A stretch of 50,951 nt of DNA. Origin: Patescibacteria group bacterium (GTDB lineage: Bacteria; Patescibacteriota; Minisyncoccia; UBA6257; 2-01-FULL-56-20). Of this stretch, positions 1 through 1,139 are shown in pieces. A program made the position numbers and the translations under genes. The notes under the pieces are model-generated. The model saw nothing but the letters and a program-made list of their open reading frames with translations. It was not told where the DNA came from and made no database searches. Location: contig JBBUGM010000027.1 in the NCBI GenBank assembly GCA_038077975.1, forward strand, positions 1-50,951, written 5' to 3'. The stretch's first letter is position 1, and each line of letters starts with the position of its first letter.

Positions 1-21
1 TTATAATCTGGAATTTGCCTT

Positions 22-49
22 CCCGCTTCGCGTTGCGAAGCAAGGCGGG
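22..49. repeat. REP-like GC-rich hairpin
   Basis: cccGCTTCGC-gtt-GCGAAGCaaggcggg; core stem 25-31/35-41. Confidence 0.5.
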
Positions 50-73
50 CGGGGAATTTGGCATATAGTACCA

Positions 74-107
74 AAAAAAACTGGCTGCGCTTGCAGCCAG
101 TTTTTTT
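74..107. terminator. Bidirectional intrinsic terminator-like hairpin
   Basis: A7-CTGGCTGC-gctt-GCAGCCAG-T7, a 15-bp perfect stem. Confidence 0.7.
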
Positions 108-304
108 GTGGGCCAGGAAGGAATCTCACTACTCGGCGCTCTGCGCCTGCGTTTTAAAACCCATCGGTTTTAACCCGCTTGCTTCGCAAGCTTTTCCGCC
201 ACGGGAAAACTTCCGTTTTCCCGACCCCTTTCACGTTCGAGTCCACCATACAAAATAAATTTGCGCATTTTTATGCGCAAATTTATTTTGTGGGCCAGGA
301 AGGA
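104..304. repeat. 19-bp direct repeat of the tRNA-Ile 3' end flanking a multi-hairpin spacer
   Basis: ttttgtgggccaggaagga at 104-122 and 286-304. Confidence 0.8.
251..290. terminator. 18-bp perfect hairpin directly 3' of tRNA-Ile
   Basis: caaaataaatttgcgcat-tttt-atgcgcaaatttattttg. Confidence 0.75.
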
Positions 305-363
305 CTCGAACCTTCGATCCTCAAGGTATAAGCTTGATGCTTTAGCCGCTAAGCTACTGGCCC
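291..363 (-). tRNA. tRNA-Ile (anticodon UAU), CCA not encoded
   Basis: Reverse complement folds fully: acceptor GGGCCAG/CTGGCCC+A, D arm GCTT/AAGC, anticodon arm TCAAG-CTTATAC-CTTGA, T arm GAAGG-TTCGAGT-CCTTC. Confidence 0.93.
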
Positions 364-368
364 TTCCA

Positions 369-418
369 ATTCGCTATTCGCATTATTAATGAATCCTCAA
401 TTCGCGTTATTAGCGAAT
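369..418. repeat. Imperfect palindromic element, ATTCG/CGAAT family
   Basis: attcgcta (369-376) / tagcgaat (411-418) with internal attcg units. Confidence 0.55.
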
Positions 419-422
419 ACTC

Positions 423-1019
423 TTAGTCATTCACTGCCGTATCAAACCTTTCCATCGCCTGCGTTGCCTGGTTGTTGAAATTGTTGATCGCACGCACTTC
501 AGAGTTTATCTGGTCGATGAGCCGTCCCGCCTCACCGTATGGCGCGTGGCCGCCGGTGAATCGCGAACTCAAGACATCCAAGAGCTGGCCGAGGTAGCCG
601 CTGTAATTTATAAGGCGGCTGATCAGGGCCAATCGGTTCGCGATCGATTCCAGCGCCGCTTGCCGCGCTTCGAATGAATCGATCTCAGAAAGCGCCTTGG
701 TCATTTTCTCCACTTCGGAAGCAAGGAGGACTGCCTGATCTCTAATTTCTTGGCTTTGTCTTATAACTTCAGTTGCGAGATTCAGTGCCTCGGTGTAATT
801 CCGGTTCTGGTCTAGCTTATTGATCTCAGCCAAGTCCAAAACCGATTCGTTCGAAAGGTTAACGATATTCTGCGCCACAAGCGCGCCCTGAAGACGGGCG
901 TTCGTAAACTCCGCCGGGATACCCCCCGTAATTCCCAAAAATTGTCCCAAAAAATAGCCCCCTCCGGCGAGGAGAACGAGCACGAGAACCAATGTGATGC
1001 GCTTGGATGTTCTAGACAT
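423..1019 (-). CDS. Membrane-anchored helical hypothetical protein
   Basis: ORF 423-1040; ATG at 1019 (MSRTSKRITLVLVLVLLAGGGYF) gives an N-terminal TM followed by amphipathic helices. Confidence 0.8.
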   Translation of the reverse strand: MSRTSKRITLVLVLVLLAGGGYFLGQFLGITGGIPAEFTNARLQGALVAQNIVNLSNESVLDLAEINKLDQNRNYTEALNLATEVIRQSQEIRDQAVLLASEVEKMTKALSEIDSFEARQAALESIANRLALISRLINYSGYLGQLLDVLSSRFTGGHAPYGEAGRLIDQINSEVRAINNFNNQATQAMERFDTAVND

Positions 1020-1068
1020 GATCAAGAATAGTTTTAACAAATTTCACAAAAAACCGCAAGGGTTTTTG

Positions 1069-1139
1069 AGCGGGATACCGGAATCGAACCGGCGTCTCCA
1101 CCTTGGAAGAGTGGCGTACTGCCATTGTACGAATCCCGC
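1069..1139 (-). tRNA. tRNA-Gly (anticodon UCC), CCA not encoded
   Basis: GCGGGAT/ATCCCGC+U discriminator; anticodon arm CCACT-CTTCCAA-GGTGG; T loop GGTTCGATTCC; upstream TTGAGA-17-TATCAT. Confidence 0.93.

Follow-up and report, generated by a model that had tools for sequence, protein, structure and literature searches.

A tRNA-Ile gene with a UAU anticodon in a lineage of Patescibacteria in which tilS was not found

The gene at positions 291..363 (minus strand) of the window, by which we mean the whole 50,951-nucleotide stretch of Patescibacteria DNA analysed here, encodes a tRNA-Ile with the anticodon UAU. We consider it very likely that this gene is a working decoder of AUA, with U34 pairing directly with the A of the codon, in a lineage, with relatives of the Parcubacteria/Paceibacteria type, that does not use TilS and the lysidine-modified tRNA-Ile2(CAU). 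Across the phylum tilS and a UAU tRNA are mutually exclusive, and about 60% of the sampled Patescibacteria genomes have the TilS-less UAU-tRNA arrangement.

ARAGORN places a tRNA-Ile(tat) at 290-363 on the minus strand, as one of two tRNA genes in the window, and the tRNA family of Rfam (RF00005) gives a full-length hit of 72 bits to 291-363 (minus), compared with a gathering score of 29 (E 7e-14). In the ARAGORN cloverleaf all stems are fully paired, with 7 bp in the acceptor stem, 4 bp in the D stem and 5 bp in each of the anticodon and T stems. The anticodon loop CUUAUAC occupies 332->326 and the anticodon itself 330->328, the discriminator base is A73 (position 291), position 37 is an A, CCA is not encoded and there is no intron. 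The fully paired cloverleaf with a C-U-U-A-U-A-C loop in the original prediction was thereby confirmed, the strand, which had been left unstated, being the minus strand. The identity elements of the E. coli-type IleRS, said to have been worked out by Nureki et al. in 1994, are reportedly A73, A37, A35, U36, C4-G69, U12-A23 and C29-G41. All of these are present in the tRNA-Ile(UAU) except the last, since pair 29-41 is A-U and not C-G; the list, however, refers to a type-1 IleRS, whereas the enzyme of this genome is of type 2. The tRNA, which we call type B, has the acceptor stem GGGCCAG and the D arm GCUUAG..AAAGC. An assembly error at the wobble base, which would have undermined the prediction, is unlikely because G005 and G030, genomes of two other genera, carry this tRNA with its anticodon unchanged at 99-100% identity (87% in G010), and because a pattern for UAU tRNAs is matched in 53 of the 61 genomes of the order.

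It had been suggested that this particular organism may have lost tilS. The gene was not found in its genome with PF01171 or TIGR02432, but the assembly (772 kb in 33 contigs, of which the window is contig 27) is 88.6% complete. It holds 38 tRNAs, among them a single CAU tRNA, which groups with the elongator-Met type in the tRNA tree. An Ile2-type CAU tRNA was not found among these 38, a set that is itself incomplete, for the assembly also lacks tRNA-Ile(GAU), the initiator tRNA-Met and the tRNAs for Asn, Cys and Tyr. Likewise mnmA (TIGR00420) is missing from the assembly, though 57 of the 61 order genomes have it. Core translation genes must thus lie in the unassembled 11%, and an absence seen in this genome alone should not be relied on. 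Hence the search for tilS and an Ile2-type CAU tRNA, which could have overturned the prediction, turned up neither, yet the DNA of this one organism could not have shown a loss, and the absence of both rests on the clade.

The cut-off of TIGR02432 was reached in none of the 61 genomes of the family and order (the genome itself and 60 relatives, 54 of the 61 being at least 90% complete), the best score being 28 bits, while the same kind of search found mnmA in the 57 genomes mentioned above, which served as a control of sensitivity. The 28-bit matches lie in open frames of about 390 aa, which were identified as mnmA. Elsewhere in the phylum tilS was readily found, over the cut-off with 129-208 bits in 114 of 301 genomes, each at least 85% complete. 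These results support the proposed loss of tilS, which is, however, shared by a very large clade and not peculiar to this organism.

The survey of UAU tRNA-Ile against tilS that the original prediction had called for was carried out on the same 301 genomes. The UAU pattern, TTATAM N13-14 GTTCRANNC, which reaches from the anticodon loop to the T loop, is matched in 177 of them. When the two results were combined by hand, giving totals that agree with the program tallies, 162 genomes had the pattern but no tilS, 99 had tilS but no pattern, 15 had both and 25 had neither, so that the pattern is matched in 162 of the 187 genomes without tilS and the other 25 are without a match. All 30 matches that were fetched, having been chosen for a tRNA-like T arm, were tRNA(TAT) by ARAGORN. 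In contrast, none of the 13 matches fetched from genomes with tilS are tRNAs (13 of the 15, G237 and G252 being left out). The two systems therefore exclude each other. Furthermore, the pattern for CAU tRNAs is matched on average 2.88 times per genome with tilS (mode 3) but 1.61 times per genome without it, and a difference of about 1.3 matches fits the loss of one CAU tRNA, namely Ile2. In the genomes with tilS the Ile2-type tRNAs are highly uniform (GGGCCCGTAGCTCAG...GGCTCATAACC...), and the tRNA-Ile2 gene often adjoins tilS.

These results also bear on whether the UAU gene could be a redundant copy, with tilS and tRNA-Ile2(CAU) hidden in the unassembled 11% and the UAU tRNA serving as an extra decoder, as in the cases of Lactobacillus casei and some Cyanothece described by Taniguchi et al. 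(PMC3575796). The incompleteness of this genome, without an mnmA that nearly all of its relatives have and without several tRNAs, leaves room for such an arrangement. However, with tilS found in 0 of 61 genomes of the order, 54 of them at least 90% complete, and with no tRNA among the inspected matches of tilS-containing genomes across the phylum, we regard it as very improbable.

In G209, which belongs to an otherwise tilS-less family, two tilS-like fragments were seen at contig ends with 87 and 63 bits, below the cut-off. They could be a decaying tilS or contamination. The UAU tRNA of this genome keeps the Ile2-type acceptor stem GGGCCCG.

The origin of the UAU tRNAs was approached with a maximum likelihood tree of 71 tRNAs in which the anticodon was masked, the alignment being only 71 columns long. 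The Ile tRNAs (UAU, Ile2(CAU) and GAU) form one group apart from the Met and fMet tRNAs with support 98/97. Within this tree the UAU tRNAs tentatively fall in at least three places: ten group with Ile2(CAU) (support 99/100), ten with the GAU tRNAs (94/87), and eight, including that of the window, form a clade of their own (98/87). The best identity of the window tRNA is 0.74 to an Ile2(CAU) tRNA, 0.63 to a GAU tRNA and 0.60 to an elongator tRNA-Met. Other UAU tRNAs of the order differ from it, so that at least three sequence types are present. G001, a genome of the same genus, carries an Ile2-like UAU tRNA (type A) instead of type B, and this type was not found in the genome under study by blastn. 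The UAU tRNAs of G047, G036 and G040 (type C), all of them full-length genes, share the D arm and the anticodon arm with the GAU tRNAs of the order while being only 53-74% identical to the other UAU types compared, and that of G047 is 86% identical to one GAU tRNA. Judged from these sequences, type C clearly derives from tRNA-Ile(GAU). It is probable, therefore, that the UAU tRNA has been recruited more than once in the phylum, by a change of C34 to U in Ile2(CAU) in some lineages and of G34 to U in the GAU tRNA in others.

For the first of these routes, the gene order in three genomes is suggestive. Two sampled families of the same class keep tilS, represented by G135 and G337, the closest relatives that have the gene. 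G135 has a full Ile2-type CAU tRNA within a Leu-Val-Phe-X-Gly tRNA cluster and G337 has the start of one, cut by the contig end, beside Phe-Val-Leu genes, and in the tilS-less G275 the UAU tRNA adjoins Val(UAC) and Leu(GAG). The arrangement in these three genomes, the only ones on which the comparison is based, fits a change of the anticodon in place in some lineages.

A tandem pair of GAU and UAU genes in G025 was considered as proof of duplication and rejected, since the "UAU" part is a stranded tRNA 3' half. At G025:C10:900-1300 there is an intact tRNA-Ile(GAU) and, 28 nt beyond it, the 3' half of a type-C tRNA-Ile(UAU), comprising positions 33-76 and differing in its acceptor stem. A UAU tRNA gene resident at this site appears to have had its 5' part replaced by a tRNA cassette.

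In the window, the tRNA-Ile(UAU) gene is surrounded by several features on the same strand. Directly 3' of it, at 251..289 (minus), is an A/T-rich hairpin of 18 perfect base pairs, identified from the sequence and its fold, which is terminator-like on both strands, although it does not appear in the output of a simple terminator scan. Upstream, an ORF from the ORF list at 423..1040 (minus) encodes a small protein of 205 aa from a TTG start with an N-terminal hydrophobic segment, and lies between the tRNA-Ile and a tRNA-Gly(UCC) at 1069..1139 (minus; ARAGORN and Rfam). A promoter scan found a promoter-like site at 1180->1152, upstream of the tRNA-Gly(UCC); it found no sigma-70 promoter directly upstream of the tRNA-Ile(UAU), promoter-like sites being present only upstream of the tRNA-Gly. 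An Rfam search of window positions 1-460 at permissive thresholds gave nothing credible except the tRNA.

Next to the 18-bp hairpin, at 108..250 (minus), is a tRNA-linked repeat element, separate from the tRNA itself, which was recognised from the sequence and by nhmmer (C27:255->100, E 3.5e-41). It is 140 nt long and rich in hairpins. At its 5' end (247->235) stands a T loop in inverted copy (GGTGGACTCGAAC), a conserved core of four hairpins comes next, and the 15 nt at its 3' end (122->108) repeat the 3' end of the tRNA-Ile(UAU) exactly (TCCTTCCTGGCCCAC), or 18 nt with the following AAA. A second terminator-like hairpin, again from sequence and fold, lies 3' of the element at 63..107 (minus) and consists of CTGGCTGC AAGC GCAGCCAG and then a T run. 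By nhmmer the genome contains 11 loci of the element, that of the window and 10 others (C31:38229-38427, C31:16713-16544, C11:57101-57233, C11:12503-12354, C11:2735-2595, C19:22877-22764, C12:2179-2289, C11:49857-49984, C30:581-667 and C16:494-710), with lengths in the family of roughly 110-170 nt. Seven of the 11 are directly 3' of tRNA genes, for Ile, Ala, Arg, Asp, Thr, Glu and Pro. These tRNA-linked elements begin with an inverted T-loop copy of the adjoining tRNA, and most end in a 15-20-nt copy of its 3' end. The conserved core of the family reads GAAAGGGGTCGGGAAAAC..GTTTTCCCGTGGCGGAA..TTAAAACCGNTGGGTTTTAAA.., and copies of it are also found in relatives; the copy on C30 adjoins a protein gene's 5' end that has been duplicated. 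The element has no match in Rfam. The family looks like a small mobile element directed at the ends of genes.

The presence of such an element, with a copy of the tRNA 3' end, directly downstream of the gene might indicate that the tRNA is a recent import, carried in by a mobile element, and not a decoder native to the lineage. That G001 of the same genus has another UAU type, while G005 and G030 of other genera have a tRNA that is 99-100% identical, would agree with such an import. However, a tRNA-Gly(UCC) lies about 0.7-0.9 kb upstream of the tRNA-Ile(UAU) in four genera, that is in G005, G030 and G010 as well as here, though on the opposite strand in G030 and G010. Moreover, the element is absent 3' of the tRNA-Ile(UAU) in those three genomes, and every type of the tRNA that was found keeps the UAU anticodon. 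We therefore think a recent import improbable, and favour a decoder that belongs to the lineage.

The statement that ATA codons are freely used was borne out, with 251 in the window ORFs of at least 150 aa (16.8 per 1000 codons) and a genome-wide frequency of 14.9 per 1000, or 22.5% of the Ile codons. On the scale of PMC12514573 the ATA usage of the genome is "high". The meaning of the codon was examined in an alignment of 75 IleRS genes, from this genome and 74 relatives. The residues aligned to the eight ATA codons of the genome's own IleRS, ignoring those that are themselves encoded by ATA, were I (54%), L (20%) and V (14%), and M was not among the top six residues. Over all IleRS sequences ATA has a profile of I 31%, V 22% and L 15%, in agreement with the profiles of ATT and ATC. 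Since ATA aligns like ATT and ATC and not with M, AUA is read as Ile and not as Met. A reassignment of AUA, with the UAU tRNA charged with Met or ambiguously as in many mitochondria, is conceivable in so far as the loss of the lysidine system is one route to it and the anticodon is one base from that of tRNA-Met. Against the alignment profile, and with the tRNA grouping among Ile and not Met tRNAs in the tree, it must be judged extremely improbable.

The IleRS that would have to charge this tRNA is encoded at C14:5650-9306. It is a protein of 1218 aa of type 2, with PF19302 at its C-terminus and no zinc-binding domain. It scored 737 bits against the T. thermophilus enzyme (1ILE), 719 bits against P. 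megaterium IleRS2 (8C8W) and about 550 bits against eukaryotic cytoplasmic IleRS, compared with 328-345 bits against IleRS1 (1FFY, 8C9F; 328 for 1FFY). The type of the enzyme was considered as a sufficient explanation of the switch and rejected, since PF19302, which marks type 2, is present in 285 of the 301 phylum genomes whatever their tilS status. Genomes with tilS make up 107 of the 149 best scorers against PF19302 and 89 of the top 100, a comparison that is confounded by phylogeny and has no control domain. The anticodon-reading C-terminal domain of IleRS2 may thus have diverged in UAU users, co-evolving with the anticodon, or the pattern may just reflect phylogeny.

The same protein contains a complete histidine-phosphatase domain (PF00300, with an RHGES motif) inserted at residues 523-692, between the two halves of the catalytic core. 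The lengths of tblastn matches suggest that this insert is common to many Parcubacteria relatives.

As for modification of the anticodon loop, TsaD is present in the genome, which makes t6A at A37 likely. MnmG was found in 0 of the 61 genomes of the order, and MnmE and TmcAL were not found in the genome itself (88.6% complete). With MnmG absent from the order and MnmE from the genome, the known xm5U pathway would be unavailable for U34, which probably carries no xm5U. MnmA, responsible for s2U, is present in the order; this enzyme acts on the Lys, Glu and Gln tRNAs. We propose that the tRNA-Ile(UAU) would be charged by the type-2, eukaryote/archaea-like IleRS, whose C-terminal domain would read the anticodon, as Taniguchi et al. 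(2013) proposed for the TilS-less Bifidobacterium and Neorickettsia, and that, as the complement of enzyme genes predicts, its A37 would bear t6A and its U34 would be without xm5U. Misreading of AUG could then be limited in one of three ways: tRNA-Met may compete for the codon, the ribosome may discriminate as it does in Mycoplasma mobile, or U34 may bear a modification of a new kind.

The last of these would amount to a different system, in which an undescribed modification of U34 would limit its pairing to A, so that a new modification pathway and not an unmodified U would be at work. In its favour, the high frequency of AUA would make misreading of AUG costly, neither of the known U34 enzymes MnmG and MnmE was found, and the eukaryotic tRNA-Ile(UAU) carries a pseudouridine at position 34 (cited in PMC3575796). 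On the other hand, no candidate enzyme was identified, and M. mobile copes with an unmodified U34 (PMC3575796). We consider this system less likely than not. More broadly, it is a tentative proposal, to which we give somewhat short of an even chance, that the UAU tRNA in most Patescibacteria was recruited several times from Ile2(CAU) and GAU tRNAs and that AUG is avoided by undescribed means, whether through a new modification of U34, through adaptation of the decoding centre or through remodelling of the C-terminal domain of IleRS2.

UAU tRNA-Ile without TilS has been reported from nine species in three clades (Taniguchi et al. 2013, PMC3575796), and a 2026 paper still speaks of "rare cases". 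The closest of the known systems are those of the TilS-less Bifidobacterium and Neorickettsia, in which a type-2 IleRS was proposed to be able to accept UAU (PMC3575796). As in these bacteria, no tilS was found here, there is a tRNA-Ile gene with the anticodon TAT, and the IleRS is of type 2 without the zinc-binding C-terminal domain. Unlike there, where few species are concerned, the trait here extends over whole orders and about 60% of the sampled phylum genomes, and the IleRS has the inserted histidine-phosphatase domain. In M. mobile the ribosome itself discriminates against AUG and U34 is unmodified (PMC3575796). The present system resembles it in that AUA is read by UAU without lysidine and U34 is probably unmodified by known pathways, as the gene content suggests, so that discrimination against AUG must lie elsewhere. 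It differs in that the type-1 IleRS of M. mobile was adapted by a single Arg (R865) in the zinc-binding domain, a domain that is absent here.

In a suppressor of a tilS deletion in B. subtilis, the G34 of tRNA-Ile1 has become a U (Fabret et al. 2011, as discussed in PMC3575796; Koehrer et al. 2014, PMC3919564). The type-C tRNAs are like this suppressor in that a UAU decoder arose from tRNA-Ile(GAU) by one base change, but unlike the laboratory strain the type-C genes of the order are natural and fixed, and the window tRNA differs from it in being closer to Ile2(CAU) than to GAU (0.74 vs 0.63). The minor tRNA-Ile(UAU) of eukaryotes shares the UAU anticodon and a type-2-like IleRS (cited in PMC3575796), but its pseudouridine-A-pseudouridine anticodon depends on an intron and a Pus enzyme, and there is no intron here. 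The canonical system of TilS and tRNA-Ile2(LAU) performs the same task, the reading of AUA as Ile, and is kept in about 40% of the sampled Patescibacteria, whereas neither tilS nor the Ile2-type CAU tRNA was found in this genome or order.

We found no paper that links lysidine or tilS with Patescibacteria or describes the UAU trait there. TilS is regarded as essential and nearly universal in bacteria, and TIGR02432 (tilS) is a single-copy marker in some bacterial marker sets. Where it is used as a marker of completeness, its absence would lower the completeness estimates of these lineages. In organisms in which AUA is often used (22% of Ile codons), MnmEG was not found and the IleRS is of type 2, the trait makes it possible to ask in nature how a plain UAU anticodon reads AUA but not AUG. 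If the broader proposal made above is true, a sizeable part of bacterial diversity could dispense with a system described as near-universal and essential.
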